Below are positions 9,710 to 64,000 of a stretch of 64,000 nucleotides of DNA, piece after piece. The DNA comes from a bacterium (GTDB lineage Bacteria; Cyanobacteriota; Vampirovibrionia; Obscuribacterales; JAKAZS01). Below the pieces are notes generated by a model that saw nothing but the letters and a program-made list of their open reading frames with translations, did no database searches and was not told the DNA's origin. The stretch covers positions 5,599-69,598 of the forward strand of contig JAKAZS010000001.1 in assembly GCA_021815785.1 (NCBI GenBank), read 5' to 3'. A program made the position numbers and the translations under genes. Position 1 is the stretch's first letter, and each line of letters starts with the position of its first letter.

Positions 9710-9734
9710 GGATTAGAAATTTTATTATAAAAGT

Positions 9735-10014: not shown

Positions 10015-10398
10015 ATGCGCTATTTAAACATCATTATATGTGGATTAAGCTTGTTAACTCCTGTGGCTTTGTCTAAGCCAGCCTATATATTTACAACCTC
10101 GGCAACGCCAAAACTTGATTTTTTTACTTTACCGAAGCTAAATTCAAAGATTTTAATTGCCAAAAATTATGGTTTGCCTAATATATCTAATAAAGGTTAT
10201 GGGTTTCATCAAGGTGGTTATGGGTTTAAACATTTGAAAACACTTAATGACTATGACCAAGATGAGAATGCGACTTGGGCTGATACAAGTTTTGGGCCTT
10301 CAATGTCTTACGGACATAGACCAGGAGCCACAGTCTGGGAACATCTTGGCTGGTATCGTGGTAGTCACAGTGGCCGGTTTGGTCATGCTAGCCATTAG
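10015..10398 (+). CDS. Small secreted Gly/His/Tyr-rich protein
   Basis: 127 aa. Signal peptide MRYLNIIICGLSLLTPVALS. AGGAAG lies 9 nt before the ATG. Mature part is rich in G, H and Y (GYGFHQGGYGFKH, GHRPGATVWEHLGWYRGSHSGRFGHASH). Confidence 0.55.
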   Translation: MRYLNIIICGLSLLTPVALSKPAYIFTTSATPKLDFFTLPKLNSKILIAKNYGLPNISNKGYGFHQGGYGFKHLKTLNDYDQDENATWADTSFGPSMSYGHRPGATVWEHLGWYRGSHSGRFGHASH

Positions 10399-20223: not shown

Positions 20224-21222
20224 TTAAGACATCTTAAAAGCATTATAGCCTAAACCAGTTAACAAACTTAAACCAGCTAAAGCCGATACATAATTATTTA
20301 AACCAAAACTACCATCTTTGTTTTGTTTTTCAAGCAAACTATTAAGCCAAATATCATTTTTAACCTGATAAATATCGTTTACGATTTGAGTTAAGGCCAG
20401 TTCCGTAACTGTAGAGCCACTATTAACATTTGAAAGTAAGTATTTAAGCGCTAAATTTATTACCGGATGCGTTTTTACATCCTGTAATGTAATTAAAGTC
20501 TCAGCTGTTGTAGCGGTAATAGCGGGGATCTCATGACCCAAGATAATATCATTGCCATAATTCCATCCTCCATGAAGACAACTATGTTCTAATAAATAGC
20601 GATTTGCTTGCTTAATAATTTTCTGGAAATATTCGCTAGTATTTTTTTGTGGCAATTTAAAAGCTAATAAATTATAACAAGTTGGTTCAATCCACTGATA
20701 ACAGTTTACATCCCAAGGCCAGCCTCGACCATACCTTAAAGCTGGTTCACCATCAATTACATATAATAATAATCGATAAAAAACAGTTGGATTAAATAAT
20801 TCATTACGAATTGCTGCAAGAAAATAAATCGCTTTATTGATAGATTCATCAATTTGCTTATCCTTACTCTTATTAAAATAGGTAAAATATCTTAAAAATA
20901 ATAAAGCTCGACCAGTATTCCAATCAGATTGGCCAATCTTATTAGCTGTAGTCCAACCACCGTCAAGATTTTGATTTTTTAAAATCTCTGACTTAATAAC
21001 CTCAATTAATTCATCAATATTTAAAGAATCAAATAAAGTATTAAAATTCAAATCAATTTTATATTGCTTAACAAAAAGCAATAATATTCCAATCAAACTG
21101 GCAACTTCAATAGAAAACTGCTTTCCATCTGAATATGACCAAACTTGATTTGCCTTATATTTCAGCGACAAGGCAATTATTAGTTTAGTTAATGAATCCT
21201 GGATTTTAGGTTGTAAGAACAT
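20224..21222 (-). CDS. Prenyltransferase / squalene-cyclase-repeat (alpha/alpha-toroid) protein
   Basis: 332 aa. Repeated QW-like motifs: LKNQNLDGGWTT, LEHSCLHGGWNYG, LEKQNKDGSFG. SD GGAGGG upstream of ATG 21222. Confidence 0.55.
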   Translation of the reverse strand: MFLQPKIQDSLTKLIIALSLKYKANQVWSYSDGKQFSIEVASLIGILLLFVKQYKIDLNFNTLFDSLNIDELIEVIKSEILKNQNLDGGWTTANKIGQSDWNTGRALLFLRYFTYFNKSKDKQIDESINKAIYFLAAIRNELFNPTVFYRLLLYVIDGEPALRYGRGWPWDVNCYQWIEPTCYNLLAFKLPQKNTSEYFQKIIKQANRYLLEHSCLHGGWNYGNDIILGHEIPAITATTAETLITLQDVKTHPVINLALKYLLSNVNSGSTVTELALTQIVNDIYQVKNDIWLNSLLEKQNKDGSFGLNNYVSALAGLSLLTGLGYNAFKMS

Positions 21223-22023: not shown

Positions 22024-23019
22024 ATGAATCCATTACGTATGTTGTGGTTAAATATAACCAGATTAAATCCGGTTGTATTAGTTGCCATAGTCTTAGTTAT
22101 GGCGGTTATAGCAATGGTAGTTACCAATAAACAGTTTAGTGAACAAGAAGATGAAAAGAATCGAGTCAAGCAAGAATATGAAAGTAAAATGAATGCAAAA
22201 GGCTCAGTAGTACTAGCAAAAAAAGATATTCCTGAAGGTGAAATCATTACCAGTGAGATGTTGGAATTAAAAGAAACAGAACAAAGTAAAATTCCAATAG
22301 ATAGTATCCAGAATTTACAAATGGCTCAAGGGCAAACTGCCAAAGTAAATATTGCTGCAGGTCAAATGCTTCGGTCTTCAGATTTTGCTGTTGCTGCTAA
22401 GGTGATGACTTTTGATCAAAAAATTAAAGAAGGATACCGGGCTGTAACTTTTGGTGTTGATACCAATTCTGGCGTAGCTGGATTTATTACGCCTGAAAGC
22501 CATGTTGACATTGTAGCTTCAGCCGGATCAGCCGCCGATACTAAAGCATCGCCAATACTTTCTGACATTGAAGTTATTGCTGTAGGTCAAACCTTCCAGA
22601 AAGCTGGAGCTGGTAGTGGGCAAGCTGCTGCTCCAGCCAGCTGTGTAACGGTTGCGGTCACACCCGAAGATGCCGACAAGCTAATTAAAGCAATAATGGC
22701 TGCAAAGCTATACTTAACCTTAAGAAGTGAAAAAGATAATACACCATTAGCTACTGTTGATGTAACTTCATTATTCCAAAAAGCTGGCGACAATGGTAGT
22801 AGCGGTGGCAGTAATCCTAACATGCCTAGCGATACTACCGCAAATTTACCTGCGCCTAATTCATTACCAGCACCACCACCAATTCCTGGAGCTGGTGACA
22901 GTGGAGTTAGCCCTGATACTGGCAATGGTGGTGGTGGCGATGTTGCTCCTCCTCCGCTGCATGAAATTGAAATCTGGTCAGGAAGCAGTAAAAATGTTTT
23001 ACAAGTACCACAAGGTTAA
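22024..23019 (+). CDS. cpaB: Flp pilus assembly protein CpaB/RcpC with C-terminal Pro/Gly-rich insertion
   Basis: 331 aa. N-terminal TM helix. SAF-like VVLAKKDIPEGEIITSEMLELKE. RcpC-like block YRAVTFGVDTNSGVAGFITPESHVDIVAS. C-terminal low-complexity NLPAPNSLPAPPPIPGAGDSG...GGGGDVAPPP. Confidence 0.85.
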   Translation: MNPLRMLWLNITRLNPVVLVAIVLVMAVIAMVVTNKQFSEQEDEKNRVKQEYESKMNAKGSVVLAKKDIPEGEIITSEMLELKETEQSKIPIDSIQNLQMAQGQTAKVNIAAGQMLRSSDFAVAAKVMTFDQKIKEGYRAVTFGVDTNSGVAGFITPESHVDIVASAGSAADTKASPILSDIEVIAVGQTFQKAGAGSGQAAAPASCVTVAVTPEDADKLIKAIMAAKLYLTLRSEKDNTPLATVDVTSLFQKAGDNGSSGGSNPNMPSDTTANLPAPNSLPAPPPIPGAGDSGVSPDTGNGGGGDVAPPPLHEIEIWSGSSKNVLQVPQG

Positions 23020-23065
23020 TATATAATAAAGATTATCAAATTTATGTAAGGAGAGACTTAGAAAT

Positions 23066-24250
23066 ATGAAACTGACAACGCTGCTAGTTTGTGATGCTGG
23101 ATTAGATAAACGACAAACTATTGAAGACCTTATCCATTCACAACCCTGGCTAGCGTTGGTCAGTACCGTATCGGGCAGTATGGCTCGCGAACAAATCGGT
23201 AGTTTACATCCTAAACTTGTCTGGATTGAATTAAGTCCAGCTCCGGTTAGAGGATTATCTTTACTAGCTGAACTTAGGGAAACATTTCCCCAATTGTATT
23301 TTTTTGTTAGTTATGATGTACCGGATCCAGAACTTATCAGAACTGCGTATCGGCTAGGAGCATCGGACTTCTTAGATGCTGAACGCTGGCGTACTGATTT
23401 ACCGGCAGCGGTACAAAGCATTCAGCTGAAACAACAGTCTGAGTCAGTTAATGTAGCAGGCGGTAAGGTTATAGCCGTATTCAGTCCAACCGGTGGAATT
23501 GGGGCAACCTCAATATGTACTAATTTAGCTGGACATTTATCCAAATACGGGGAATCTTGTATAGTAGATTTAGACCTTCAATTCGGTATGGTATCTCATT
23601 ACTTAAATCTTGATCCATCATTTTCCTTAAGTACCATTGATTTTTCTCATACTAATTTTGATGCAACATATTTAAGAAATCTTATGACTAAATATGATGA
23701 CAAGTTAAGCATACTTGCAGCCCCGCCAGAATTAGAAGATATTGGTGACATATACGCAGCGCAAGTTCAAGAAATATTATTTACAGCCAAACAAGAATTT
23801 AGATATGTCTTGGTAGATTTACCGAAAAACCTTCTTGACGAAAGAGCTATAGCTACTTTAGATCTAGCAGATAATGTATTAGTGATTACCGAATATAATT
23901 GGGCGGCTATTTTAAATGCACGCAAATGCATTGATACATTTAAAGCCCATTATGCGCAGGATAAACTATTGTTAGTAATTAACCGATCTGAATGGTTGCC
24001 ACCAGATGTTTTAAGTGAATGTAAAGCCAATTTAAATTATCCTGTTTATCACGAAATACCTAGTGATGCCAAAACCGCTAAATGGGTTATTAATCAAGGT
24101 CAAATAGCCCCTGGCCATACAACACTGGGTAAATCACTGGACTCTTTAGCTAAACGTATAGCTGGTGGTGAACAATTGCTTTTGACTTCAAAAGAAACCG
24201 AAAAAGCCTCATTCTTTAAAATACCAGCAATTTTTGGTAAGAAAAAATAA
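23066..24250 (+). CDS. tadZ: TadZ/CpaE pilus-localisation protein (atypical receiver + MinD/ParA-like ATPase fold)
   Basis: 394 aa. Receiver-like N-terminus with Glu at the phospho-acceptor position (LVWIELS). ParA/MinD-like domain VIAVFSPTGGIGATSICTNLA. Position between cpaB and cpaF. Confidence 0.8.
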   Translation: MKLTTLLVCDAGLDKRQTIEDLIHSQPWLALVSTVSGSMAREQIGSLHPKLVWIELSPAPVRGLSLLAELRETFPQLYFFVSYDVPDPELIRTAYRLGASDFLDAERWRTDLPAAVQSIQLKQQSESVNVAGGKVIAVFSPTGGIGATSICTNLAGHLSKYGESCIVDLDLQFGMVSHYLNLDPSFSLSTIDFSHTNFDATYLRNLMTKYDDKLSILAAPPELEDIGDIYAAQVQEILFTAKQEFRYVLVDLPKNLLDERAIATLDLADNVLVITEYNWAAILNARKCIDTFKAHYAQDKLLLVINRSEWLPPDVLSECKANLNYPVYHEIPSDAKTAKWVINQGQIAPGHTTLGKSLDSLAKRIAGGEQLLLTSKETEKASFFKIPAIFGKKK

Positions 24251-24384
24251 TTGTTAATTTTTTTTTATTTTTAATTCCCTAACATATTTTTTCGGCTTAT
24301 TGGGAACAATTAAATTAAGTAGAATGTTTAATTAAAAAATAATTCAAACAATTCTTTTGCGTTTTTAAACAGGATGGTGAGAAT

Positions 24385-26142
24385 ATGGGTGATCAAAGAA
24401 AAGACCAAAATTTGCCGGCTCGTCCAGCGTCATCTTTAATGGGTCAACTAGTACGTCAACGTCAAGGCGGCGAAGTTGCATCGCCTAATCAGGGTACTGG
24501 TGGCTTAGTTGGCAAAGATCAAAACACTGGGTTATCCGGAGGTCAAACAGGTACCCAATTCGGTAGTAAAGATGGCTCAACTGGGCTGGGTGGTAGTCAA
24601 CAGTCAACTGGACTGGGTGGTAATCAACAGTCAACGGGTCTGGGTGGTAATCAACAGTCAACGGGTCTGGGTAATAAAGGTTACCAAACCCAGGCATCCA
24701 AAACTGTTGGCGGATCGGGACTAGAAACTGGTCGAAATTCAAGTGCTGGGGTAACGGAAACATCGGGTCCAAGTAAATCAGATATTGAGAGAATTGACGC
24801 TAAAGATGATAGTGGCCATTTTGGTGGCCATGGTGAAAGTTCATCGGGATCATCTACACAAGACTCTAGTACCAAATTTTCGGCGAATCAACAACTTATT
24901 CGTGAACGGGAAAAATTAATTATTGAACAATTACGTAGAGAATTAGACACTTCAAGATTAACTAATATTTCTGAAGATACCCAGCAACAGGTCAGACAGA
25001 GAATTAGAGAAATTGTAAATTCTGATCCAGCCCCATTAACCATGATGGAAAAAGGTATATTATTACAAAATGTTTTAGATGAAGTATTTGGGTTTGGACC
25101 GCTAGGCCCACTTCTTCGCGATCCAAGCATTGGTGATATTTGCGTTAACGGTTGTCACAGTATTTATGTTGAACGCAATGGACGTCTCGAAAAAACCAAT
25201 GTAGTTTTTGAAGATAACCGCCACTTAAGAATGACAATTGACAAAATTATTCAACCACTGGGTCGTCGTCTTGATGATAATTCGCCAATGGTTGATGCCC
25301 GTTTACCAAACGGTTCACGGGTTAATGCCACCATTCCACCAGTAACCATTGATGGGCCAACAGTTACCATCCGGATGTTTGGTACATCTATTATGTCATT
25401 AGGTCAATTAGTTGAAAAGGGCGCTTTATCAGTTCAAATGGCTGAAGTTTTAAAAGCTTTGGTTAAAGGACGGATTAATATGATTATCTCAGGAGGTACC
25501 GGTTCTGGTAAAACAACACTTTTGAATGCTTTATCAGCGCATATTAATCCTCGTGAACGAATTATTACGATTGAAGATGCTGCTGAATTAAGGCTACAAC
25601 ATGAGCACTGGGTAAGAATGGAAACCAGACCACCTAACACTGAAGGCAAAGGTCAAATTAATCAACGGATGCTTGTAGTAAACTGTTTACGGATGCGGCC
25701 TGATCGAATAATTCTTGGGGAATGTCGGGGTGAAGAAGCGTTTGATATGTTACAGGCCATGAATACGGGTCACGGTGGTTCAATGACCACGATCCATGCT
25801 AATACTCCACGGGACTGTACTAAACGTCTAGAAAACATGATTCTAATGTCTGGAGCTGAAATGCCGCCAAAAGCAGCTCGTGAACTTATAGCTTCAGCAC
25901 TACAGGTCATTATTCAGATTCGTCGTTTAGAAGATGGGACCAGGCGTCTAACCGAAATTGCTGAAATAACCGGTATGGAAGGTGACACTATTGCTATAAG
26001 CTCGATGTTCTTACTTGAACGAGAAGGGCGTGATCCAAGAGGCTTCTTTAAATGTAGGCATGTTGGCTCAGGATTGCCACCAAAATTTTTAGATCAACTC
26101 GAACAAGAATCAGTTCCGTTTAAATTAGAATGGTTAAGATAA
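24385..26142 (+). CDS. cpaF: CpaF/TadA secretion ATPase with about 170-aa low-complexity N-terminal extension
   Basis: 585 aa. Walker [15 protein letters not shown]. Walker B/Asp box [11 protein letters not shown]. His box [13 protein letters not shown]-terminal G/Q/S/T-rich region precedes the conserved core. Confidence 0.93.
24577..24675 (+). repeat. 27-bp in-frame tandem repeat (about 3.7 copies) inside cpaF, encoding STGLGG[SN]QQ
   Basis: Units at 24577-24603, 24604-24630 and 24631-24657, plus a partial unit at 24658-24675. Copies 3 and 4 are identical over the shared part. Confidence 0.9.
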
Positions 26143-26180
26143 TAAAGTTGTAGGTTGTAATCAGGAAATACAAAAATAAT

Positions 26181-27116
26181 ATGGCAACATCAATTCCAAT
26201 AATTGTCTTTTTTATAATTCTTTTGGGTGGAGTTTTATTAATAGCAGCAAGTCAATCAGGGTTTTCTGGTGAACTTACGCGTTTAAGCAAACAACAAAAT
26301 AAATTTAAATCAAAAACCAAACCAACCGAAGAAATAAATTTATTCGTAACCCAAAGAACTAATTTTTTGGCTACTTTACTTGATACAGCTGGTTTAGAAA
26401 ATCAGTATGACAAAATGAAAATGTATTGGGGACTTTCTATTTTTGGTGGTGGGCTTATTTTTGCCGGCGGTTGTGCCTATATGTCGCCAATGCTAGCTCC
26501 TATTGCTTTCTTTTTTGGCTTACCCTTTGGTGGTTATGGCTTTATTTTTGCTTTAAAAAAAATTGCTAAAAATCGCCAGGCCAAAATGACGGCTCAATTG
26601 CCTCAAATTTTAGAAACAATGGTGAGTTCGCTTAGAGCAGGTTCACCAATTATCGAAGTTTTTAAATTATTATCCGAAACAGCACCAGAACCTATACGTG
26701 GTGAATTTAAAAGAGGGCTAGTATCATTACAACTTGGCAAGCCTTTTCGTGAATCACTTAAGGAAATGAGTCTTAGAATTAAAGCAGCTGATTTTAGGTT
26801 ACTCATTACCGCAATTTTTATCTCACAAGATGTAGGTGGAAATTTAGCTGATGTAATAGCCGAAATAGCCGATGCTATTCGCGAACGATTTAAACTGCGT
26901 GATTATATGGACAGTTTAACCTCACAAGGTAAAGCTACAGCAATGTTTATTGGTAGTCTGCCCTATTTTATTACCCTTTTAACTTACACAATGGCACCTA
27001 ATTATATTATGCCGTTTTTAAATAACTTCTTTGCCCGCATTGCTTTAGCTGTATTTGTAATCTGGGAATTAATTGGTTTTTACATTTTAATGAAAATGAC
27101 AACTTTCGAGGTTTAA
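26181..27116 (+). CDS. tadB: TadB-like pilus platform protein (T2SSF domain)
   Basis: 311 aa. N-terminal TM, cytoplasmic T2SSF-like domain (LPQILETMVSSLRAGSPI), C-terminal TM helices. Follows cpaF. Confidence 0.85.
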   Translation: MATSIPIIVFFIILLGGVLLIAASQSGFSGELTRLSKQQNKFKSKTKPTEEINLFVTQRTNFLATLLDTAGLENQYDKMKMYWGLSIFGGGLIFAGGCAYMSPMLAPIAFFFGLPFGGYGFIFALKKIAKNRQAKMTAQLPQILETMVSSLRAGSPIIEVFKLLSETAPEPIRGEFKRGLVSLQLGKPFRESLKEMSLRIKAADFRLLITAIFISQDVGGNLADVIAEIADAIRERFKLRDYMDSLTSQGKATAMFIGSLPYFITLLTYTMAPNYIMPFLNNFFARIALAVFVIWELIGFYILMKMTTFEV

Positions 27117-27123
27117 GCATATA

Positions 27124-28062
27124 ATGAGTTCAAGTGGTTTAGTAAGTTTTCTTGTATTTTTATCCGTACTGCTTTTAGGCTTCGCCATTACCAAACCGGC
27201 AATGGATAATTATATGGATACCTATTCAGTTAGGATCAAAAAACGCAATGAAAAAGAAATTGAAAGCCAAGAAGCACCAAAAGACTCGGCCTTGCTCATA
27301 CTGTTTGAAGGCCTCGGTAAACAACTAATTACCATGGCTCCATTTTTAGTCGATAAACGTACAATTGAGCTGTTAAGTTTTGCTAATTATCGCACCAAAC
27401 AACATTTACATCGTTTTATGGGTATTAAAGGGGCTGTTGGAATATTTTGTATCCTTTGGGGTGTTTCAGCAGCTTTATCTAACCCAATGAATATATTACT
27501 GTCATTTTTTACAATTTTAGTTGGTTGGACTATTCCTAATTTTTTCTTAGCCGGTCGAGCCCGACAAAGACAAGCCCAAATCGTCAAAGAATTACCGACC
27601 GTTTTAGATTTATTGATAGTATGTTCTCAAGCAGGTTTAAGTTTACTAGCTGGCGTTGATAAATTAAGCAAAGAAACTACTGAATCATGCCCATTACTAT
27701 CTAATGAAATGCAACAACTAATTAGTGATGTTAAAATGTTTGCTAAATCGGTACCAATTGCTTTAAGAGAAATGGGCGAACGCTGTGGTGTTGAAGAATT
27801 GATTAATATGGCAGCTGGTTTAATTGCAGCCGAAAGTAAAGGTGCTGATATAAGCTATCCCTTACGCCAACAAGCTGAAGCCTTAAGGGATAGATTAAAA
27901 CGTAAACAAGAAGAAATAGCAGCCAAAGTACCAGTTAAAATGGTTCCTGTCATTATGTTATTTGTTATGCCTTTGATTTTATTACCAATGCTTGGTCCAG
28001 CTGCCTTAACTATTGTCACATCACTTGGTCCATCGATGGGTGGCGGCACTGGTGCTAAGTAA
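27124..28062 (+). CDS. tadC: TadC-like pilus platform protein (T2SSF domain)
   Basis: 312 aa with the same architecture (ELPTVLDLLIVCSQAGLSL). Starts 8 nt after tadB. Confidence 0.85.
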   Translation: MSSSGLVSFLVFLSVLLLGFAITKPAMDNYMDTYSVRIKKRNEKEIESQEAPKDSALLILFEGLGKQLITMAPFLVDKRTIELLSFANYRTKQHLHRFMGIKGAVGIFCILWGVSAALSNPMNILLSFFTILVGWTIPNFFLAGRARQRQAQIVKELPTVLDLLIVCSQAGLSLLAGVDKLSKETTESCPLLSNEMQQLISDVKMFAKSVPIALREMGERCGVEELINMAAGLIAAESKGADISYPLRQQAEALRDRLKRKQEEIAAKVPVKMVPVIMLFVMPLILLPMLGPAALTIVTSLGPSMGGGTGAK

Positions 28063-28417
28063 AATTTGTCAAGTATACAATGTAAATAGCAGTCTCTATG
28101 TATCTAGACAGACAGTAATTGCTGATACATTTTTAACAAGACTAATTGGCTTACTTTTAACAAAAAAATTCAAGCCAGGATCTGGTTTAATTATTGAGCC
28201 TTGTAAATCAATTCATATGTTTTTTATGCGTTACCCTATTGATGTAATCTTTTATAATCAAAATCTAGAAATTGTTGCCTTAGTTGAAAATATCCAACCT
28301 TGGCAGTTTACAAAAGTTTATTCTAAAGCAAAGGCATGTTTAGAATTACCAATAAATTCAATTAGACAAAGTAATTCTTCAATAAATGATCAACTTAAAA
28401 TTGAATTCTTAAACTAA
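28013..28417 (+). CDS. DUF192 (UPF0127/COG1430-like) protein. The start is uncertain: TTG 28013, GTG 28040 or GTG 28052.
   Basis: DUF192-like core ADTFLTRLIGLL...SGLIIEPCKSIHMFFMRYPIDVIFYNQNLEIVALVENIQPW. Overlaps the 3' end of tadC by 11-50 nt depending on the start. Confidence 0.6.
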   Translation: MSHHLVHRWVAALVLSKICQVYNVNSSLYVSRQTVIADTFLTRLIGLLLTKKFKPGSGLIIEPCKSIHMFFMRYPIDVIFYNQNLEIVALVENIQPWQFTKVYSKAKACLELPINSIRQSNSSINDQLKIEFLN

Positions 28418-28508
28418 AGATAGACCTTGCAAAACCTACATATTGAGTTGATCTAAATAAATTTAAATTACTGATTATTGGTAAATTGACCAGCAAATTA
28501 TATTAACT

Positions 28509-29063
28509 TTAGGGTTTTGAATTCATAATCATTTGAATAATAAATTCGCCCCAGTTTAAAGTAATTATCAAGCTTAAAGCAATAAATGGTGCTAAAGAAA
28601 TCCTGGATTTTAAAACGTTATTTAAATTGGTTTTATCAAAATTAAAGACAAAAGCTTGTTTGGTTTGCATTGCTAAGATATAATCCCAACAAAGTTTTCG
28701 CCAGGGAATAACTAAGGCGATGCGAATAACTGAATAGAATCCAAACAAAAATGCATAAAAGAACCAGGTAATTAAAATTAATTTTGGTCCAATAAATGCA
28801 CCAATACAGCCCATTAATTTTACATCACCATAACCAACTTTATGTTTAGGATCAAGCACAATCATTATGACAACGGCAATAATATACGCTAAAATAGAAA
28901 TAAATAAACCTTGCCAGCCACGGTTCAAAGTATTAAGAACCAGTCCTAAGATTGCACCGCCAAAATTAAGATAATTAGGGATTTTCTTGGTTTTAATATC
29001 AATAATTGAAGCAACGATAGCTATTACAACAATAAGGACATTTATAATTGTTAAGCTAATCAT
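28509..29063 (-). CDS. tadV: A24-family prepilin peptidase (TadV/CpaA-like, no methyltransferase domain)
   Basis: 184 aa polytopic protein. Two Asp motifs in context: SIIDIKTKKIPN and VGYGDVKLMGCIGAFIG. Confidence 0.85.
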   Translation of the reverse strand: MISLTIINVLIVVIAIVASIIDIKTKKIPNYLNFGGAILGLVLNTLNRGWQGLFISILAYIIAVVIMIVLDPKHKVGYGDVKLMGCIGAFIGPKLILITWFFYAFLFGFYSVIRIALVIPWRKLCWDYILAMQTKQAFVFNFDKTNLNNVLKSRISLAPFIALSLIITLNWGEFIIQMIMNSKP

Positions 29064-44078: not shown

Positions 44079-45260
44079 TTACTTGATCCAGCCTAATTCC
44101 TTTAAAGCCTCATCAAAACTAATATTTTTCTGACGACACATATTCATAACTATTACAGCATGTTCAATATTAATAAAACCTTGATTTATTAAGTACTGAC
44201 AGCGTAGACAGGAATTTAACAACCCTGTGTCAATGGTGCCAGCATTAAGTAAAATCTGACCTAACAGTTTTGAATTTTGAATAGCCTTTTTAACTGCTTT
44301 AAGCAAATCATCATCGCTGGCAATTCCACAGACTTTTAAAACATCAGTTAATTTTATATTTTTACTGTCATCAGATTCATTAAAACCAATTTCAGCTGTA
44401 GCTTGTTCAACACTAATACCACGTGTAGCAATTTGATTTAGACAAATCGAAGCAAAATGTGGTGACAAAGTTTTATTGCCAACCATTTTTTGGATGTCTA
44501 AAGCCGCATTAAGTACCTGAGTATTAATGTAACCAGATTGAACCAAAACTTCACCAAGAGCTAATTCTTTAGCTAAAGAAGTTTCCAGACAAGTCATAAT
44601 ATCGGTCTCGGTAACTAGACTAGCTTTTACTAATAATTCACCAAGTTTAATCCAAGGTTTACCCGGTGGCTGATATAATCCCTGCTCAATAAGTGATTTT
44701 TCAAAATCGCCCCGCCTGCGTTTAGCAGCTTTTAAGCCTTGAATAGCCTGCTCTCTGGTTAATTTTTCATCACGAATCAAAACTTGCGTAGTTAAAGCTG
44801 CTGTTAACAGCTCTTCACTTAACTTCTGAGTTAATACCATAACTCGACCCAAGGGTAACCCCGTTTCTTTGGATGTTGCTAATGCTTCATTTAACTTATC
44901 AGATGTAGTAATTTGCGCTTCAACCAAAATTTCACCAAGACGAGCTGTAGCTCTAGTTTTCAAAGCTTCAAAACCGGCTTTTTTTAAAGCCTCATCAATT
45001 TCGACATTTTCAAAGTGAACAATTTTTAAAGTTTTAATCGCCATATCAGAATCAACTAATTTATCCTTAATCAAAGACTGTAACTTAACCGCACCAGTTA
45101 AAACAGTTTCCGATAAAATACCACGCATGACGAGTTCACGACCAACTGGTAATTTAGTATTTTTCGATGATTCAATAGCTTGATTGAGATCTTCAATATT
45201 GAGAATCTCAGCGTAAATTAATAATTCGCCCAATTTTATTGACGGTAATGAGTTTGTCAT
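44079..45260 (-). CDS. Protein composed of four tandem T2SSE_N / MshEN-like repeats (no ATPase domain)
   Basis: 393 aa. Four units of about 90 aa, each starting [KR]L[GT][ED].L and containing a second half-site such as LPVGRELVMRGILSETVLTGAVKLQ. The pattern matches the GspE/MshE N-terminal domain. Confidence 0.65.
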   Translation of the reverse strand: MTNSLPSIKLGELLIYAEILNIEDLNQAIESSKNTKLPVGRELVMRGILSETVLTGAVKLQSLIKDKLVDSDMAIKTLKIVHFENVEIDEALKKAGFEALKTRATARLGEILVEAQITTSDKLNEALATSKETGLPLGRVMVLTQKLSEELLTAALTTQVLIRDEKLTREQAIQGLKAAKRRRGDFEKSLIEQGLYQPPGKPWIKLGELLVKASLVTETDIMTCLETSLAKELALGEVLVQSGYINTQVLNAALDIQKMVGNKTLSPHFASICLNQIATRGISVEQATAEIGFNESDDSKNIKLTDVLKVCGIASDDDLLKAVKKAIQNSKLLGQILLNAGTIDTGLLNSCLRCQYLINQGFINIEHAVIVMNMCRQKNISFDEALKELGWIK

Positions 45261-45288
45261 AACTAACCTTTTAAACTCATCTAAAATT

Positions 45289-45361
45289 TACCCCCAAGGG
45301 GATTCGAACCCCTGCCGCCTCCGTGAAAGGGAGGTGTCCTAGGCCTCTAGACGATGGGGGC
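45289..45361 (-). tRNA. tRNA-Glu (anticodon UUC)
   Basis: Minus-strand GCCCCCATCGTCTAGAGGCCTAGGACACCTCCCTTTCACGGAGGCGGCAGGGGTTCGAATCCCCTTGGGGGTA folds as a cloverleaf: 7-bp acceptor stem (G1-U72 wobble), anticodon stem CCTCC/GGAGG with loop CTTTCAC, T-arm AGGGG-TTCGAAT-CCCCT. No encoded CCA. Confidence 0.93.
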
Positions 45362-45387
45362 AGAATTAACCTACAACAACCAAAATA

Positions 45388-45417
45388 AGCATAACAAAAA
45401 ACATTTAGTTATGTCAA
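45388..45417 (-). promoter_or_regulatory. Candidate sigma70-type promoter for tRNA-Glu
   Basis: Minus strand: TTGACA (rc 45412-45417), 18-nt spacer, TATGCT (rc 45388-45393), about 25 nt upstream of the tRNA 5' end. Confidence 0.3.
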
Positions 45418-55120: not shown

Positions 55121-56080
55121 ATGTCAATCATTCAAAACCAGCTCACTAAATTACCGATTGATCGACCTATTGGTAATTTAGAAATTATTGATAAAGCTTT
55201 AGAATTATGTCTTAATAACTGGAAAATAATTTTAACAGTGTCACTTTGGCCAGCGCTTTTCTGCTTTATAAGCCAAGTCGTTATTCAGTATTCAATAAAT
55301 CATATAATGCTGGATCATTTAAACTTTATGAATAATCTGGTTTTTGCGATTTTAGCGTTAATAAGCATTGTCATATATTTTATAAGTTTTTGGATCTGGT
55401 TTGTAAGACAACTCGCAACAGCAAGATTAATAGTAGGTTTCAGTAATTCAATAAAAGACTCAATTAATCATATAAATATAATTCAATGGCATATTGTAAT
55501 TTATAATCTAGCATGGCTTATAGCTTTAATATTATTTACAGTACTTTATATTATTACAACTATACTATTGATGCTCCTAACTAAAAATCATCCTAGTTAC
55601 ACCAATATCGTTCTTGGTATTATGATTGGATCAATATTCATAGTTTCGTTTTGCTTCTTTATAATTTTGACGTTAATGATTACTGGCAGTATAGTACTTA
55701 TATGCGAAGATTACAATTTTAAAGAAAATTTAAAAAAAATATTTCATTTTATCAAACTGGCCTTTGTTAGTATGATAGCATTACATATCACACTGGCTCT
55801 ATTATTAATTCCAATTGGAGTCGCCTTTTATTTACCAGGTGTTATCATTTCAATTATCAATATCTCTATTTTCGAAAGAGGTCATCAACTTCATGAACTT
55901 ATTCGAAATCAAGGCATTACCACAATTATTATCTATAAATTCTGTGAAGTTGCATTCCAGTTTTTTTCTTATTCCTTTATAAACATTACCTATGGTCTAT
56001 TTTACCTAAATTATAAAATGAAATTTTTAGGCTTTGATATTATATATAATCTTGAACAAAATAATAACTTACAGGCATAA
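55121..56080 (+). CDS. Polytopic membrane protein (about 7-8 TM), unknown function
   Basis: 319 aa, strongly hydrophobic. The stop lies 5 nt before the next gene. No family recognised. Confidence 0.55.
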   Translation: MSIIQNQLTKLPIDRPIGNLEIIDKALELCLNNWKIILTVSLWPALFCFISQVVIQYSINHIMLDHLNFMNNLVFAILALISIVIYFISFWIWFVRQLATARLIVGFSNSIKDSINHINIIQWHIVIYNLAWLIALILFTVLYIITTILLMLLTKNHPSYTNIVLGIMIGSIFIVSFCFFIILTLMITGSIVLICEDYNFKENLKKIFHFIKLAFVSMIALHITLALLLIPIGVAFYLPGVIISIINISIFERGHQLHELIRNQGITTIIIYKFCEVAFQFFSYSFINITYGLFYLNYKMKFLGFDIIYNLEQNNNLQA

Positions 56081-56085
56081 AGATA

Positions 56086-56736
56086 ATGGAAGACTATCAT
56101 GACTTAGTACTTAAATTAGCTAATATTTACAAGAAAAAAAATCTTGTAAATATTAATTATGAAAAAATAATTACCGAAATAATATCTATTATCAATAATA
56201 TCAAAAAATTAATTTCAGAATTTTTTGCAACAAATTACTCAAGTTTCAAATTTTCAGATAGCTCTAACATCCAAGTAATTATAATTATAGCTATCATTAC
56301 TTGCTTTATCAGCTTATTTATTTATTATTTACTAGCCATTCTAAAATACCGAAAAAAATCCATTGTCAGCAATAATCAAAGTGATATAAACATTACCAGT
56401 CTAATAAATTCAGTTTACTGGCAAAATAAATCAGAAGTTTTTATTCAAGAAAACAATTACACTGAAGCAACAAAATCACTCTATTTTGCGTGCCTATCCT
56501 TAATGGTTGAAAATAATATAATTAAATATGATTACAATAAAACTAATTATGAAATAGGTAAAGCTCTGTTTAAACATCAACAGCTAAAGGAAAATTTTCT
56601 GATTATTGCCAAAACATTTGAGAAAGCTTTTTTTGGTGAATATCAGCTTAAGATTGAAGATTACTATACAGTTAAAGATTCATACGAATTTTGTAAAGAC
56701 TATATTCAAAAAACTGGTATTACAAATGAAAAATAA
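56086..56736 (+). CDS. DUF4129-like membrane-anchored protein
   Basis: 216 aa. One TM helix (VIIIIAIITCFISLFIYYLLAIL). The C-terminal helical domain resembles DUF4129 (TEATKSLYFACLSLMVENNIIKYDYNKTNYEIGKAL...FEKAFFG). Sits in the typical position upstream of DUF4350/MoxR/DUF58. Confidence 0.45.
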   Translation: MEDYHDLVLKLANIYKKKNLVNINYEKIITEIISIINNIKKLISEFFATNYSSFKFSDSSNIQVIIIIAIITCFISLFIYYLLAILKYRKKSIVSNNQSDINITSLINSVYWQNKSEVFIQENNYTEATKSLYFACLSLMVENNIIKYDYNKTNYEIGKALFKHQQLKENFLIIAKTFEKAFFGEYQLKIEDYYTVKDSYEFCKDYIQKTGITNEK

Positions 56737-58047: not shown

Positions 58048-58995
58048 ATGAATTCAATAAATCTTAACAAAATTTCCAATCTACAAAATAAGCTTAATGA
58101 ATATATTCTTGGTCAGGATAAAATCATTGACTTTATAACAATATCCTTAATAGCAGGTGGTCATGTTCTTTTAGAAGGTGTGCCTGGAACCGCTAAAACT
58201 TCACTCGTTAAAGTATTAGCTAGACTCTTAAATGCACCATTTAAACGAATTCAGCTAACTCCAGATATGTTACCATCCGATATTACTGGTACCAGTATGT
58301 ATGATTTTAACACGAAAAACTTCCATATTCATCAAGGACCTATTTTTTCGAACTTAATTCTAGCTGACGAAATCAATCGTACCCCACCAAAGACCCAGTC
58401 AGCTCTTCTTGAAGCTATGGAAGAACGTCAGGTAACCATAGATGGTCAAACTCAACCTTTATCTGAATTTTTCATGGTAATTGCCACCCAAAATTCAATA
58501 GAATTTGAAGGGACCTACCCTTTACCAGAAGCCCAATTAGACCGCTTTATGTTTAAGTTGAATTTTAATTATCCTGATGAATTAAATGAAATAGCTATGC
58601 TAAAACTATGGCAAAATTCACGCCAAAAAAAACTGATTCAAAATATTGAACCGGTAATATCAATTGATGAGATTCTTGAACTAAGACAAGAATTAACCAA
58701 AATCACCATTGATGATACCATTTATGAATACCTCGTTAAATTATCAAATGTTTCTCGTAACTCATCTAGCGTATTTCTTGGTGCTAGCCCAAGAGCTACC
58801 TTAAACTGGCTGATAGCTGCTAAGACTACGGCTTTTATTCAAGGTCGAGATTTTGTTACTCCTGATGATGTGAAATTTGTAGCTCAACCAATTCTCGAAC
58901 ATCGTCTCATCTTAAATCCCGAATCAGAACTCGAAGGTAATACAATCAGTCAAATTATCAACTTGTTACTAGAACAAGTAAAAGTTCCTCGTTAA
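58048..58995 (+). CDS. MoxR-family AAA+ ATPase
   Basis: 315 aa. Walker A LLEGVPGTAKTSL. Walker B LILADEINRTPPKTQSALLEAMEE. C-terminal lid typical of MoxR. Confidence 0.92.
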   Translation: MNSINLNKISNLQNKLNEYILGQDKIIDFITISLIAGGHVLLEGVPGTAKTSLVKVLARLLNAPFKRIQLTPDMLPSDITGTSMYDFNTKNFHIHQGPIFSNLILADEINRTPPKTQSALLEAMEERQVTIDGQTQPLSEFFMVIATQNSIEFEGTYPLPEAQLDRFMFKLNFNYPDELNEIAMLKLWQNSRQKKLIQNIEPVISIDEILELRQELTKITIDDTIYEYLVKLSNVSRNSSSVFLGASPRATLNWLIAAKTTAFIQGRDFVTPDDVKFVAQPILEHRLILNPESELEGNTISQIINLLLEQVKVPR

Positions 58996-58999
58996 AATC

Positions 59000-60316
59000 A
59001 TGATTTTAAGTAAGCAATTACTGATTTTACTAATACTACCATTAATCCTAGCAATACTTGGATATAAATATGAAATTTGTACGTTATTATTTTACTTATA
59101 TAATTTCTGCTTATTTATTTATTTAATTGTTGATGTCATAAAAACTAAGGCTCATAAATTAATAACTATATCCAGGGTTTGTGATTCCAGGCTTTCATTA
59201 CAACAGAATAATCCAGTCAAAATTATTATCAGTAATAATAATTATTATAGTGTTTTATTAATAGTCAAAGATAATTATCCAGATTTTATGACTTGCGATA
59301 CCTTAGAAAAAAATATTAAAATTCCACCACTAGCCAATGCTGAATATATTTATAATCTAATTCCTCATAAGCGCATAAAATATAATTTCACTTCAATCTC
59401 TTACCGATACTTAAGCTATTTTGGTCTATTCTATAAACAGGTTAATGTTAATGCTCATCAAGAAGTCGTTGCCTTATTTGTAAAATCACAGCTAAATAAT
59501 ATTTTAATTAAAATTACAAAAAGTACAGCGATTGGCGAATTAAAACAGAATCGAAGCGGTCTTAGCACAAATTTTAGCTCATTAAAAGAATATGCCAAAG
59601 GAGATCCATTACGCTATATCGATTGGAAAGCTACGGCCAGATATGATAAACCAATTGTAAAAACATATACGAAAGAAAATGAACAGAATTTATTAATTCT
59701 TGTTGATGCCAGCAGAATTATGAACAGCCATCTTAAAGGTATGACCAAATATGATCACGCATTAAATGCTGCTTTTGGATTAGCCTTAACCGGCCTACTT
59801 CATAAAGATAATGTCGGCATTGGAATTTTCGCCGATAAACCTTTACTCTATTTAAAACCAAAACGGGATTCAAATTATATTAATACAATAATTGAAGCCT
59901 GTGCCAGTATAAATGCTATAAGCAATGAGGCTGATTATATTACGGCACTTTTATATTTTACTAAATATTTAAAAGAAAGAAGTTTAATTGTTATTCTAAC
60001 AGATATAACCGATGAAATAAGCTCAAACTGCCTGCTTAAATGTATTCAGATTATTAATCATAAACATTTAAGTTTTGTAGCAACCATTTACGACAAAGAA
60101 ATAATGACTATAGCGAAACCTAACTATAAATCAATTCCACAAGACCTCAACAGCATATTTAAGCGGGCTACTTGTATAAATATGTTAAATGATCGTCGCT
60201 TAGCCTTAAGTAATTTAAAAAAATCAAAATGCCTAGTCTTAGACAGTTCAATTGAAGATTTTAATACGGAACTAATTAACAGTTACATTAATATCAAGTT
60301 AAGAAATAAAGTATAA
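59000..60316 (+). CDS. DUF58-domain protein (vWA-like, MoxR partner)
   Basis: 438 aa. Two N-terminal TM helices. DUF58 signature KGDPLRYIDWKATARYDKPIVKTY, then a vWA-like LLILVDASRIM. Starts 4 nt after the moxR stop. Confidence 0.85.
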   Translation: MILSKQLLILLILPLILAILGYKYEICTLLFYLYNFCLFIYLIVDVIKTKAHKLITISRVCDSRLSLQQNNPVKIIISNNNYYSVLLIVKDNYPDFMTCDTLEKNIKIPPLANAEYIYNLIPHKRIKYNFTSISYRYLSYFGLFYKQVNVNAHQEVVALFVKSQLNNILIKITKSTAIGELKQNRSGLSTNFSSLKEYAKGDPLRYIDWKATARYDKPIVKTYTKENEQNLLILVDASRIMNSHLKGMTKYDHALNAAFGLALTGLLHKDNVGIGIFADKPLLYLKPKRDSNYINTIIEACASINAISNEADYITALLYFTKYLKERSLIVILTDITDEISSNCLLKCIQIINHKHLSFVATIYDKEIMTIAKPNYKSIPQDLNSIFKRATCINMLNDRRLALSNLKKSKCLVLDSSIEDFNTELINSYINIKLRNKV

Positions 60317-61009: not shown

Positions 61010-64000
61010 TTACTTCATTGCTGTATATTTTGGTTTAGTTACTTGTTCGTAAACACCAGCTCCACTTGTACTTTGAGTTACCACGCAACTGGTTTTCAGT
61101 AATTGATTGGCAATAGCTTTTATTTGCTTATCATTACTTCTAAACATGGCTTTTAATGGTTTAATAGCACTAATAGCACTAGGTATCGAAAAATCAGATA
61201 GATATGTTGATCTTCCATTACTATTACGGGCATTGACATTGCGATAACCAATTTTACTAACCTGATTAATAAAAGCAAAGTCAACTGATTGGCTGGCGCA
61301 AGCTAAGGATAAATGTCTTCCGGGAGCCAAGGAAATTGGTTTAATTCCTTTTACATATACAACGACACTATCTTTAGCATTATCATGTAAATTATAAACA
61401 CTTACAATTGAACCATTAGCTATAGCTAATACAATAGCTCCACGTTTCAAGCTTAATTTAACTGGTTTAATTACTCCTAAGGTAACTACCATATCATGGC
61501 TAGCACTTATGACGCTACTACCCTGACCAAGTGTCGCTCTTTCATTATTACTACCATTAAAGGTTAGTCCACATGCTTGACTTGTATTCTTGATACTTAA
61601 TCCGGCAACTTCATGATTATAAGCAATTGGCATTATAAGTGATGTATTTTCAATAATTGCGTTATTTTCATCACTATTAGTGGTCAGATATTTTGTATCC
61701 ATGCTTTGTTGCTTAACTTGGGCATTAAAATTAGTATTTAAACCAGCTTGATTATTATCTAACACATTAGCTACACTTTGATTGCTATTAGCTTGATTAT
61801 TAGCAGCCGAATTTTCGTTATAAACTCCAAATGCCGACAGATTATTTTGAATAACCGCAATTCCCGAATTAACTACTGGAGGATCAGCTGTTATTTTCAC
61901 ATTACCTTGTAACGTTATGGCACTAGCCCCTAGATTTCCAGTATTAAATATAATATTTCGACCAGCTGCGTTAAGCACGTTTCCACCAGCAGACGCTCTT
62001 ATACCATTATTACCAAAGAACACATTCGCTCCATTAGCAATAACTGTGATTAAACTTGGATTCGGGTTAGTAGTATTAATAGCATTAGCTGGCCCTATAC
62101 TTATAGTAACGTAACCAACATTAGGCGTAAACGAACTACCTAATATATTACTGCCATTGGCTATATAAATCGACCCACTAGTTAGATTATTATTAGTAAC
62201 AGAGACTGAGCCATTGTTAGCTATTAAACCGATAGCCGAAGTAGTTCCAATATTCATAAAACCATTACCGCTAAAGTAAATGCTACCACCACTGGCGCCA
62301 ACTCCAGCCCCTGTTGCAATGTTACCTAAAACATTTAAATTGCCAGTATTAAACACTATATTTCCACCAGCTTGAGCTCCGACAATTTGAGTAGTTGTAG
62401 CATTGTCAGTAACATTAATGCCACCTAAACCTTGAGTTGAAACAGCAATCATTCCACTATTCACCATTAAGGTTCCGCCAGCCCCAATAGTTCCACCACC
62501 ACTTACTAAAGCCAAATTAGGAGCAACCATATTAGCACCAGTACCGGGTTCGGCAATATATCCAGTTTGCGAAGCTGTTAAGAAGGCAAAATTACTAGCT
62601 TGAATTAACCCATCGTTATATATACCAAAACCACCACCAGAGGCTAAAGCTACAACCTGACCGCCAATAATTCCTGGAGTAACAACTCCACCTTGATTAA
62701 TTTGAGCGTAAATAGTAAGGCTACCAGCTACATTTACCGCAAGCGTACTGGAAGCTTGACTTTGTTGCATTACAGTATTACCAGTAAAATTATCATTTAC
62801 ATAAATACTCGATCCATTACCATAGCTTTGTAATCCTAAATTATGGGCATTGACCTGAATGTATGAATTAGCAGAACCAATACCAGTACTACCACCAAAT
62901 GAATACAAACCAAGCACAGGGGCTGTTATTGTACCACCGGCAGTCATAGTACCGCTAGTTTCAACATAAACATTAGCTCCGGAATTAGAAGTACCTAGGT
63001 TTAAGGTAGCGCTAGTATTATTTATACCAACTGACAATCCAGCATTAAATATAATATTACTTGCCTGAGTATATAATGGCTGATTTCCACCAACACCAAA
63101 ACCAATTTCACCATTAGCGGTTTGCATAGTTAAAGTATTACCAACAACTAAACCACCAGTGCCAGTTAAGATATAACCAGTACCGTTAGCCGTAATATTC
63201 TGGAAAGTATTAGCATTTCCCACAGTTGAGTCAAAGGTAATATTCCCATTATTATTAGCAGTTAAATTAATCGCCGACGCACTAACAAATCCAGTAGTTG
63301 TTATCGATCCACTTGAAACTAAAGTTAAGGTTGAGCCAACTGAACTAGCTCCTAAATTAACACTACCAGCAATATCAGTAACATTTGCTAAAGCATTATT
63401 AGCTGAACCGGTATAAGTATTATTTAAGGTAAGATTTTGTGTATCAACATTAAGGGGTGTATAAATAGCACCAATATTTTGATTTTGAGTTACTAAATTA
63501 ATAAATCCTGCGGTTAAGGTCTGTCCACTAGCCTCGGTAATTGCACCTGTGCCACTAGCACTTAAGTTAATAATGCCATTTCCACTATCAGTACCAACAC
63601 TTATTGATGATGTAATATAAATTCCACCACCAATTGGATTAGTCATTACCAAACTAAATATGCCATTAGAACCAACTGAAACATTACCACCACTGCCACC
63701 GCCAATATTTACTACCCCATTATAACTGTCACTTAAAAAGGCGCTAGCAAATTTATTACTTGTACCTAAGTTAACATTAATAGCTGCGGTATCAATATAA
63801 AGTGGATTAATTGCTGAGACCCCAAGGCTACCACCATCAGTGACAATATTTATATTGCCAGCTTGAAGAATATCAGTATTAGCCGCAGTTGTAATCGATC
63901 CACCTAAACCAGTAGTCAAATTAATCGTACCCACTCCAGCGTCGGCTCCAGCTGTAAGCAAACCATTAACAACAACACTACCTTGTGTATTTATGTTTAA
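61010..64000 (-). CDS. Giant Gly/Asn/Thr/Ser-rich beta-helix-type repeat surface protein. The N-terminal part lies beyond the window (more than 996 aa in-window).
   Basis: The frame stays open from 61010 to 64000. The track's M at 63961 is an internal TTG (Leu). About 700 aa of degenerate G-x-I/V-x-repeats (GGSIYFSGNGFMNIG, GGNIVFNTGNLNVLGNI), then an unrelated C-terminal domain of about 270 aa ending KPKYTAMK. Confidence 0.8.
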   Translation of the reverse strand, partial: LNINTQGSVVVNGLLTAGADAGVGTINLTTGLGGSITTAANTDILQAGNINIVTDGGSLGVSAINPLYIDTAAINVNLGTSNKFASAFLSDSYNGVVNIGGGSGGNVSVGSNGIFSLVMTNPIGGGIYITSSISVGTDSGNGIINLSASGTGAITEASGQTLTAGFINLVTQNQNIGAIYTPLNVDTQNLTLNNTYTGSANNALANVTDIAGSVNLGASSVGSTLTLVSSGSITTTGFVSASAINLTANNNGNITFDSTVGNANTFQNITANGTGYILTGTGGLVVGNTLTMQTANGEIGFGVGGNQPLYTQASNIIFNAGLSVGINNTSATLNLGTSNSGANVYVETSGTMTAGGTITAPVLGLYSFGGSTGIGSANSYIQVNAHNLGLQSYGNGSSIYVNDNFTGNTVMQQSQASSTLAVNVAGSLTIYAQINQGGVVTPGIIGGQVVALASGGGFGIYNDGLIQASNFAFLTASQTGYIAEPGTGANMVAPNLALVSGGGTIGAGGTLMVNSGMIAVSTQGLGGINVTDNATTTQIVGAQAGGNIVFNTGNLNVLGNIATGAGVGASGGSIYFSGNGFMNIGTTSAIGLIANNGSVSVTNNNLTSGSIYIANGSNILGSSFTPNVGYVTISIGPANAINTTNPNPSLITVIANGANVFFGNNGIRASAGGNVLNAAGRNIIFNTGNLGASAITLQGNVKITADPPVVNSGIAVIQNNLSAFGVYNENSAANNQANSNQSVANVLDNNQAGLNTNFNAQVKQQSMDTKYLTTNSDENNAIIENTSLIMPIAYNHEVAGLSIKNTSQACGLTFNGSNNERATLGQGSSVISASHDMVVTLGVIKPVKLSLKRGAIVLAIANGSIVSVYNLHDNAKDSVVVYVKGIKPISLAPGRHLSLACASQSVDFAFINQVSKIGYRNVNARNSNGRSTYLSDFSIPSAISAIKPLKAMFRSNDKQIKAIANQLLKTSCVVTQSTSGAGVYEQVTKPKYTAMK

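Follow-up and report, generated by a model that had tools for sequence, protein, structure and literature searches.

What might a protein do that consists of little except repeats of a second-messenger-binding fold? The question is posed by an open reading frame (ORF) at positions 44079-45260 on the reverse strand of the 64,000-nucleotide stretch of DNA analysed here (the window), which a first-pass annotation had put forward as a candidate multivalent receptor for cyclic di-GMP (c-di-GMP). Of all parts of the c-di-GMP network the receptors are the least well covered, and for the non-photosynthetic cyanobacteria knowledge of them is lacking altogether. We show that the encoded protein is made up of four 98-residue units, each an MshEN_N-type bundle followed by a family-specific helical tail, and that the Melainabacteria family to which it belongs is large and keeps a fixed core of four units. 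We propose, from conservation and structural models, that it is a soluble cytoplasmic c-di-GMP receptor or adaptor of the 'MshEN_N-only' class, in which units 1-3 would bind the ligand, unit 4 would have a docking or structural role and occupancy would control partner proteins; we give this reading slightly better than an even chance of being correct.

A stand-alone protein of four MshEN_N-type units

The ORF is complete, running from an ATG start to the stop codon included in its coordinates, and encodes 393 residues in which ORF translation, domain scans and modelling give the arrangement (MshEN_N plus helical tail) four times over. The first-pass annotation was exact in placing four repeats here, and all four of the 53-residue strings that it quoted are found in the translation. 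The MshEN_N-type motif pairs, 53 residues each, begin at residues 9, 107, 205 and 303, and all four keep exactly the layout of two 24-residue motifs and a 5-residue spacer described for MshEN_N (Wang 2016, PMC5013675). Aligned in register, the four pairs give a BLOSUM62 sum of 444 against -213 +/- 39 in shuffles, with 0 of 5000 shuffles as high. The period is exactly 98 residues, a bundle of four helices spanning 53 residues plus a helical tail of about 45 residues, and the 45-residue stretches between the pairs are themselves mutually homologous (BLOSUM62 sum 158 against -223 +/- 32 shuffled; 0 of 5000). The tails matched no known family in a profile scan, and no other domain, signal peptide or membrane segment was found in the protein.

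A curated hidden Markov model (HMM), sequence matches in the PDB and superposition of models all indicate that the repeats are genuine MshEN_N homologues. The NCBIfam model NF053729 ('cyclic di-GMP-binding domain-containing protein, MshE-related'), which has 53 positions and a curated cut-off of 38 bits, matches the whole protein with an E-value of 3.8e-35 and 119.4 bits, aligns over positions 1-53 and is matched by 69 of 69 aligned homologues; taken singly, repeats 1-4 score 37.0, 49.8, 42.1 and 22.1 bits. In a PDB sequence search the best match was Thermus thermophilus PilF (6f8l, E=1e-5), and Vibrio cholerae MshE (5htl) was matched at E=0.013. The GspE/MshE N-domain pattern named in the first-pass annotation is thus borne out, although not through the profile to which it had looked for confirmation: PF05157 (T2SSE_N) gave no match to the protein in Pfam even at E<=10 and does not figure among the Pfam marks precomputed for 120 homologues; the reason is that the protein lacks the MshEN_C half. 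With neither MshEN_C nor a PF05157 match, the repeat is not a full MshEN/T2SSE_N domain. Weak, sub-threshold Pfam matches to FumaraseC_C, DUF6494 and M_domain were dismissed as helical look-alikes. The protein is not a GspE/PilB/MshE ATPase; Pfam and NCBIfam scans found no ATPase domain (T2SSE, PF00437), and the chain stops 38 residues past repeat 4, in keeping with the earlier description of it as stand-alone.

Structure prediction, which had been suggested as a further check, gave the expected four-helix bundle. In the whole-chain AlphaFold2 (AF2) model (predicted local distance difference test, pLDDT, 77.9; predicted template modelling score, pTM, 0.31) four helical units at a pLDDT of about 80-88 are linked by stretches of low confidence (residues 100-105, 194-197 and 293-298). 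The single-unit model of residues 103-200, for which the input was a 41-row alignment of units, reached a pLDDT of 90.6 and a pTM of 0.75 and consists of a four-helix bundle and one long tail helix. Both models are all-helical, and in repeats 1-3 the helix is predicted to start at motif position 2, as it does in binding-competent domains. The unit model superposes on c-di-GMP-bound MshE (5htl) with a root-mean-square deviation (rmsd) of 0.6 A over 54 residues (39% identity, probability 1.00) and on c-di-GMP-bound PilF GSPII-B with 1.0 A over 53 residues (40-42% identity); the next structural neighbour is Xanthomonas citri PilB-N from its PilZ complex. These alignments cover the bundle only, the tail being without counterpart, and the Foldseek E-values are weak (0.14-0.8) because the aligned stretch is short. 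Whole-chain Foldseek matches to designed toroids, TALE/BurrH and fumarases (template modelling score <=0.14, rmsd >20 A) were set aside as generic helical-repeat similarity.

From the N-terminus, repeat 1 (residues 9-61; 45078-45236, all coordinates in this paragraph being on the reverse strand) reads KLG.../PVG...Q and has Glu as residue 10 of motif I. Tail 1 (residues 62-106; 44943-45077), delimited like tails 3 and 4 by comparison of the repeats, is modelled as two helices with a low-confidence connector. Repeat 2 (residues 107-159; 44784-44942) reads RLG.../PLGR...Q, is the top-scoring and most conserved copy and has Gln as residue 10 of both halves. It is followed by tail 2 (residues 160-204; 44649-44783), a long basic helix (…KAAKRRR…) that is the most conserved of the four tails in the alignment and packs on the bundle in the single-unit model. 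Repeat 3 (residues 205-257; 44490-44648) reads KLG.../ALG...Q, and tail 3, which was also modelled, spans residues 258-302 (44355-44489). Repeat 4 (residues 303-355; 44196-44354), KLT.../LLG...Q, has Thr in place of the motif-I Gly3, and tail 4 (residues 356-393; 44082-44195) ends in …ELGWIK, beyond which homologues carry tetratricopeptide repeat (TPR) or disordered extensions.

Ligand-contact positions are constrained in three of the four repeats

A candidate c-di-GMP receptor is the reading with the best support, since conservation in the family is highest at the ligand-contact positions of MshEN. In an alignment of 69 sequences, eight of the nine invariant columns lie among the 48 positions that contact c-di-GMP in MshE (hypergeometric P=2.3e-7), and columns at ligand-contact positions have a mean entropy of 1.12, against 1.59 in the hydrophobic core and 2.13 elsewhere. 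This constraint is not spread evenly over the chain. Entropy at the ligand positions is 0.5-0.9 in repeats 1-3, against 1.5-1.75 for the whole repeat, and 2.19 in repeat 4, against 2.18. When 192 diverse representatives are compared, each of repeats 1-3 retains Gly3 in 184-190 of them and the motif-II Gln in 187-189, and the shortfall is due to alignment gaps. Positions 2, 17 and 21 are Leu, Ile, Val or Met in all eight half-motifs of the window protein and are kept across the family, and motif II of repeats 1 and 2 has an invariant Pro-h-Gly-Arg start. Repeat 4 scores a median of 22 bits in the representatives, against about 60 for the other repeats, and usually has no recognizable 'RLG' start, many paralogues having 'PLYQFL' there. 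Judged by these patterns, repeats 1-3 are constrained at the ligand positions and repeat 4 is relaxed; repeat 4 is probably a degenerate, non-binding module.

The residues concerned are those on which binding is known to depend. In MshE, changing Gly3 of either half (G11L, G40I) abolishes binding and Leu substitutions weaken it more than 10-fold, changes at Arg9, Asp12 and Gln32 costing less than 5-fold (Wang 2016, PMC5013675). In the window protein, Gly3 is present in both halves of repeats 1-3 (G11/G40, G109/G138 and G207/G236) and is missing only from motif I of repeat 4 (Thr305). The first-pass annotation had described the first-half Gly as mostly lost through erosion of the motif; this is correct for the turn Gly at position 10 but not for the essential Gly3. 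Likewise, its proposal of a multivalent receptor is supported by the conserved ligand positions as far as the receptor goes, but not at four sites, three being likelier since repeat 4 is unconstrained there.

A large family with a fixed core and variable C-termini

A word-indexed search returned 264 homologues, with full-length relatives reaching down to 33% identity and an annotation that is essentially always 'hypothetical'. A scan of 185,579 species genomes using a 14-sequence alignment confirmed 217 loci, at 2-3 per assembly, of which 80 were fetched; the neighbourhood and taxonomy counts in this study rest on those 80. All 80 are metagenome-assembled genomes, labelled nearly throughout as Melainabacteria, Obscuribacterales or cyanobacteria with a few bins otherwise, and the copy in Candidatus Melainabacteria bacterium clean1587 (L001) is 99% identical to the window protein. 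In an exhaustive HMMER search, a profile of the 98-residue unit gave 11,856 matches at E<=1e-3 and 652 (50%-identity clusters) at E<=1e-30. Exactly four stretches occur in almost all of the best 150 representatives, which are proteins of 264-1,858 residues, and the mode of the unit spacing is 98 residues in all three intervals, so that the four-unit core is fixed. Some odd labels occur with the same synteny, namely Planktothrix sp., Drouetiella sp., Flavobacterium psychrophilum, Actinobacteria and Proteobacteria (L003/L052, L019/L047/L053/L062/L073, L037/L064, L028 and L031/L056); in a family otherwise restricted to Melainabacteria, these labels are probably wrong.

What follows the core varies: nothing in the window copy, TPR repeats in some homologues and a P/Q/A-rich disordered region in others. 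The disordered-tail paralogues close with a conserved terminal peptide, K(K/R)RLxDL(I/V/M)P, which by its sequence looks like a tethered short linear docking motif. In the form K(K/R)RL(S/A/T/I)DL(I/V/M)P it was seen in P0041, P0048, P0053, P0068, P0052, P0060, P0063, P0066 and P0087 and in L076 (9986-12706). The last of these and two further proteins (L073 9986-13066, L074 9986-12991) are 900-1026 residues long, their C-terminal 500-600 residues being of low complexity with repeated (S/A/T)DW motifs.

Two further observations concern the motif itself. Proteins of about 200 residues carry an N-terminal J-like domain (YYQILGIxPDA…, no obvious HPD) and a single MshEN_N motif pair, encoded about 9 kb upstream of a four-repeat paralogue (L054 689-1285, L055 751-1347, L057 681-1280, L058 712-1311, L059 316-924 and L068 1968-2621); this is another unreported MshEN_N architecture. 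Marks for DUF4388 (PF14332), which we take to be a PATAN-type domain, also appear on homologues, covering profile positions 33-87 and lying on the MshEN motif region (P0005 216-266, P0026 136-181, P0041 118-181, P0093 103-132). As marginal, partial matches of 17-35 bits, with a cut-off of 25 bits, that overlap the motif region, they do not denote a PATAN domain; their position is a hint of kinship between part of DUF4388 and an MshEN half-motif.

A proposed mechanism and its weak points

In the mechanism we favour, repeats 1-3 would each bind one c-di-GMP in the manner of MshE and PilF. The guanines would stack on the clusters formed by Leu2, Leu17 and Leu21, would be capped at position 1 by Lys or Arg in motif I or by Pro in motif II, and would be hydrogen-bonded by the backbone NH of Gly3 and of residue 4 together with the closing Gln of motif II. 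Repeat 4 would have lost binding and may play a structural or docking part, like the 'landing pad' role proposed for PilF GSPII-A. Ligand occupancy would then alter the shape or accessibility of a beads-on-a-string array and so govern the binding of partner proteins. The adaptor role is suggested by the paralogues, which append either TPR repeats or a long disordered tether with the terminal peptide to the same core.

A number of observations count against this proposal. The published motif has Arg at position 1 (extended to Lys or Leu), Gly at position 10 and Gln at position 24, and in its relaxed form admits R/K/P/N, G/A/S and Q/N/K/R/Y/W/S/T respectively. Across the eight half-motifs of the window protein, position 1 is K, P, R, P, K, A, K and L and position 10 is E, G, Q, Q, S, G, G and G, with position 24 being Ser or Ala in motif I and Gln in motif II. 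Just two of the eight pass the relaxed motif. The failures, which lie mainly at the turn position and at positions 1 and 24, include Glu or Gln at the turn Gly10 in motif I of repeat 1 and both motifs of repeat 2, Ala at position 1 of motif II in repeat 3, and non-hydrophobic residues at positions 11-12 in repeat 2. Throughout the family, motif I closes with Ser, Ala or Gly rather than Gln, and half of the ribose-phosphate hydrogen bonds would therefore be missing. PilF GSPII-A gives a further reason for caution: it does not bind even with the consensus restored, its site being blocked by an extended N-capped helix and inter-subdomain contacts, and by analogy the family-specific tails could block sites here. 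Nor does the genome offer a partner or a source of ligand close by. The conserved neighbours in the related loci (a radical-SAM enzyme, a ROK kinase, GlyQ, MoxR/DUF58, transketolase and aminopeptidase N) are all housekeeping, so that the neighbourhood search yielded no partner candidate, and within the window there is no GGDEF, EAL or HD-GYP gene and no c-di-GMP riboswitch.

Not every departure from the consensus is a defect, and Lys, Pro and Leu at position 1 should not be counted towards the motif erosion of which the first-pass annotation spoke. PilF GSPII-B, with Lys and Leu at this position, binds c-di-GMP at 6 nM, and GSPII-C, with Pro at position 1 of motif II, binds at about 500 nM (PMC11731258), which argues that K-L-G and P-h-G starts are not erosion. 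An MshEN_N by itself is also sufficient, binding with a dissociation constant of 0.35 uM in the case of MshE (Wang 2016, PMC5013675).

One explanation for the same data is that the array is a ligand-independent helical scaffold, in which the bundles are kept as a fold or docking surface and no repeat binds a nucleotide, as in XpsE/GspE N1, PilF GSPII-A or the X. citri PilB-N:PilZ complex. Non-binding MshEN homologues are well documented, PilB-N is among the structural neighbours noted above, and the six failing half-motifs, the motif I without its closing Gln and the clearly degenerate repeat 4 would all fit. However, the known non-binders have lost Gly3 (XpsE G11V/G40L; GSPII-A A41), whereas no residues of this family are better conserved than Gly3 and the motif-II Gln of repeats 1-3. 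Ligand positions that are more conserved than the hydrophobic core are not predicted by a mere constraint on the fold, and the contrast with the relaxed repeat 4 in the same proteins argues for an extra, ligand-type constraint on repeats 1-3. We regard a pure scaffold as unlikely, if credible enough to be kept in mind.

Genomic setting and candidate partners

Another possibility, raised in the first-pass annotation, is that the protein acts in trans to give c-di-GMP control to pilus or secretion ATPases, such as the Tad/Flp ATPase CpaF of the window, or to TadZ. A tad/flp cluster (CpaB/RcpC, TadZ-like AAA_31, CpaF, TadB, TadC, DUF192 and a prepilin peptidase A24) does lie in the window at 22024-29063, and MshEN domains classically regulate the GspE/PilB/MshE-type ATPase superfamily. 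No MshEN_N repeat was found in the window CpaF (24385-26142, 585 residues), as the first-pass annotation had noted, and about 190-236 of its N-terminal residues match no family. Yet the cluster and the repeat gene are 18 kb apart, on opposite strands and with unrelated genes between them, a pilus or secretion gene was a neighbour in 0 of the 80 related loci, and the 2-3 paralogues per genome with different C-terminal adaptors argue for several partners. Regulation of CpaF or TadZ in particular is therefore doubtful, and we would give it little chance.

As to the ligand, enzymes of c-di-GMP metabolism are found elsewhere in the group. Two loci encode intact GGEEF proteins at a distance of 2-5 kb from the repeat gene (L033 5206-7872 on the reverse strand and L077 2887-4818 on the forward strand; phmmer with a PleD GGDEF probe, E=1e-28 and 1e-17), which shows the order to possess diguanylate cyclases, although the linkage is not conserved, and HD-GYP genes were reported in a Melainabacteria genome (Galperin and Chou). 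Together, the GGEEF proteins of Obscuribacterales loci and the reported HD-GYP genes indicate that the class has c-di-GMP turnover. The ligand might instead be another cyclic dinucleotide, for example 3'3'-cyclic GMP-AMP (cGAMP). In the MshE study of Wang one section is headed 'MshEN can also bind cGAMP'. With a small residue standing systematically in for the motif-I Gln, the two half-sites are unequal, which could suit an asymmetric ligand. Against this, the guanine-reading elements (Gly3 backbone and Leu clusters) are present in both half-sites, no cGAS/DncV-like or CBASS gene and no PADLOC defence match was found nearby, and GGDEF and HD-GYP are the cyclic-dinucleotide enzymes seen in relatives; we consider a ligand other than c-di-GMP highly improbable.

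The only neighbour conserved across the orthologue clade is a tRNA-Glu(UUC) gene (45288-45362, reverse strand), identified by RNA search 27 nucleotides upstream of the ORF and on the same strand, and the only RNA family found within the window. It lies directly upstream, in the same orientation, at 28 of 29 orthologue loci and at 0 of 22 paralogue loci, with a spacer of 8-325 nucleotides in the other orthologue loci (in L001-L045 and L053, at about 9600-10040 on the forward strand), and it is kept although the protein-coding neighbours differ between the lineage of the window and Obscuribacterales. Just upstream of the tRNA, at 45388-45417 on the reverse strand, is a sigma-70-like promoter match (TTGACA-18-TATGCT with TG; a consensus match only), and no terminator-like site was found between tRNA-Glu and the ORF in the window; the predicted promoter may thus drive the two genes together. 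A strong terminator hairpin stands right behind the tRNA in about 12 of the 28 orthologue loci, which rules out co-transcription as a universal rule and leaves it plausible in the window.

The protein might also be a buffer or sink that sets a threshold by sequestering c-di-GMP and has no output partner: each chain has three conserved sites, the 393-residue form lacks an output domain, a hydrophobic or Lys position 1 predicts high affinity in PilF, and a placement behind a tRNA promoter could mean high expression. Protein partners are, however, suggested by the conservation of the tails and of the degenerate fourth unit and by the TPR or peptide-tether extensions of the paralogues, and we consider such a buffer highly improbable.

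A more elaborate form of the receptor/adaptor proposal would be that the family consists of Melainabacteria-specific c-di-GMP 'counting' adaptors. Three binding modules and a degenerate docking module would translate graded c-di-GMP levels into the recruitment of partners step by step, by way of the conserved tails, TPR domains or tethered peptide, and the ancestral orthologue would travel as a passenger of the tRNA-Glu unit, coupling its dosage to growth-rate control. We offer this as a speculation that, taken whole, is quite improbable.

Next to the gene in the window lie an FecCD/ABC transporter on the upstream side and, downstream, a HAD hydrolase and an aminotransferase. A MoxR AAA ATPase and DUF58/VWA pair lies at 58048-60316 on the forward strand, about 13 kb off on the upstream side of the repeat gene; in Obscuribacterales the pair (clusters 8 and 11, L004-L053) is also on the upstream side, about 7 kb off, and this shared remnant of synteny supports the orthology of the window copy. 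Elsewhere in the window, a forward-strand ORF at 2408-3658 (416 residues) contains two retropepsin-like aspartyl-protease domains (gag-asp_proteas / Asp_protease_2, in two stretches), and ORFs of 983, 332, 305, 319 and 216 residues (61010-63961, 20224-21222 and 13922-14839 on the reverse strand, and 55121-56736 on the forward strand) have no Pfam match, those of 983, 332, 305 and 319 residues having no NCBIfam match either.

Implications

The family comprises hundreds of 50%-identity clusters, at 2-3 copies per genome, that go unrecognized by Pfam and are annotated 'hypothetical'. Our literature search turned up neither a four-repeat MshEN_N protein nor any c-di-GMP receptor of Melainabacteria, and no account of a four-unit array of 98-residue units, of three constrained units with one relaxed, or of a lineage-wide family with swappable C-terminal adaptors. 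If repeats 1-3 bind, a stand-alone MshEN_N protein would for the first time be seen with more than two modules, three of them active and one degenerate, and would offer a simple natural system for the multivalent reading of a second messenger. It could show how affinity is affected by Glu or Gln at the turn and by a small residue in place of the motif-I Gln, and could reveal which machines Melainabacteria have put under c-di-GMP control. If the repeats do not bind, the family would be a clean case of a ligand-binding fold re-used as a scaffold.

Comparison with known systems

The NfrB/PRK15489 models align with the motif pair of each repeat at profile positions of about 477-546, which recalls Escherichia coli NfrB, a c-di-GMP-activated glycosyltransferase. 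The match is limited to the motif region (52 bits against a family cut-off of 1170), and NfrB has a single C-terminal MshEN fused to a membrane glycosyltransferase. Of the same architectural class is cce_1044 of Cyanothece sp. ATCC 51142, a stand-alone cyanobacterial tandem protein, (MshEN_N)2, compared here by its description: the 'MshEN_N only, no T2SSE_N1' class that includes it is already listed in Supplementary Table 4 of Wang 2016 (PMC5013675). As described there it has two units of about 70 residues without the conserved 45-residue tail, unlike the four 98-residue units of the present protein, and it was not among the matches listed in the homologue searches.

Vibrio cholerae MshEN (PDB 5HTL) shares with each unit the 24+5+24 motif pair and the same predicted four-helix bundle, and repeats 1-3 keep its Gly3, Leu2/17/21 and motif-II Gln. 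It differs in that the window protein has four copies, no MshEN_C (T2SSE_N1 alpha/beta) subdomain and no ATPase. Motif II here starts with Pro-h-Gly-Arg rather than Arg-Leu-Gly, motif I closes with Ser, Ala or Gly in place of Gln, and every bundle is followed by about 45 residues of additional helical tail. Thermus thermophilus PilF, with GSPII-A, -B and -C (6F8L, 8PDK, 8PFA), resembles the window protein in placing tandem MshEN-type domains on one chain, in having Lys (motif I) and Leu or Pro (motif II) at position 1 with Arg at position 4 of motif II, and in its mixed competence, since PilF B and C bind and A is degenerate, much as is predicted here from sequence. In PilF, however, full GSPII domains, with N and C subdomains, are fused to a PilB-type ATPase, whereas the present protein is a stand-alone array of N-subdomains with a different tail, in which the degenerate copy comes last rather than first.

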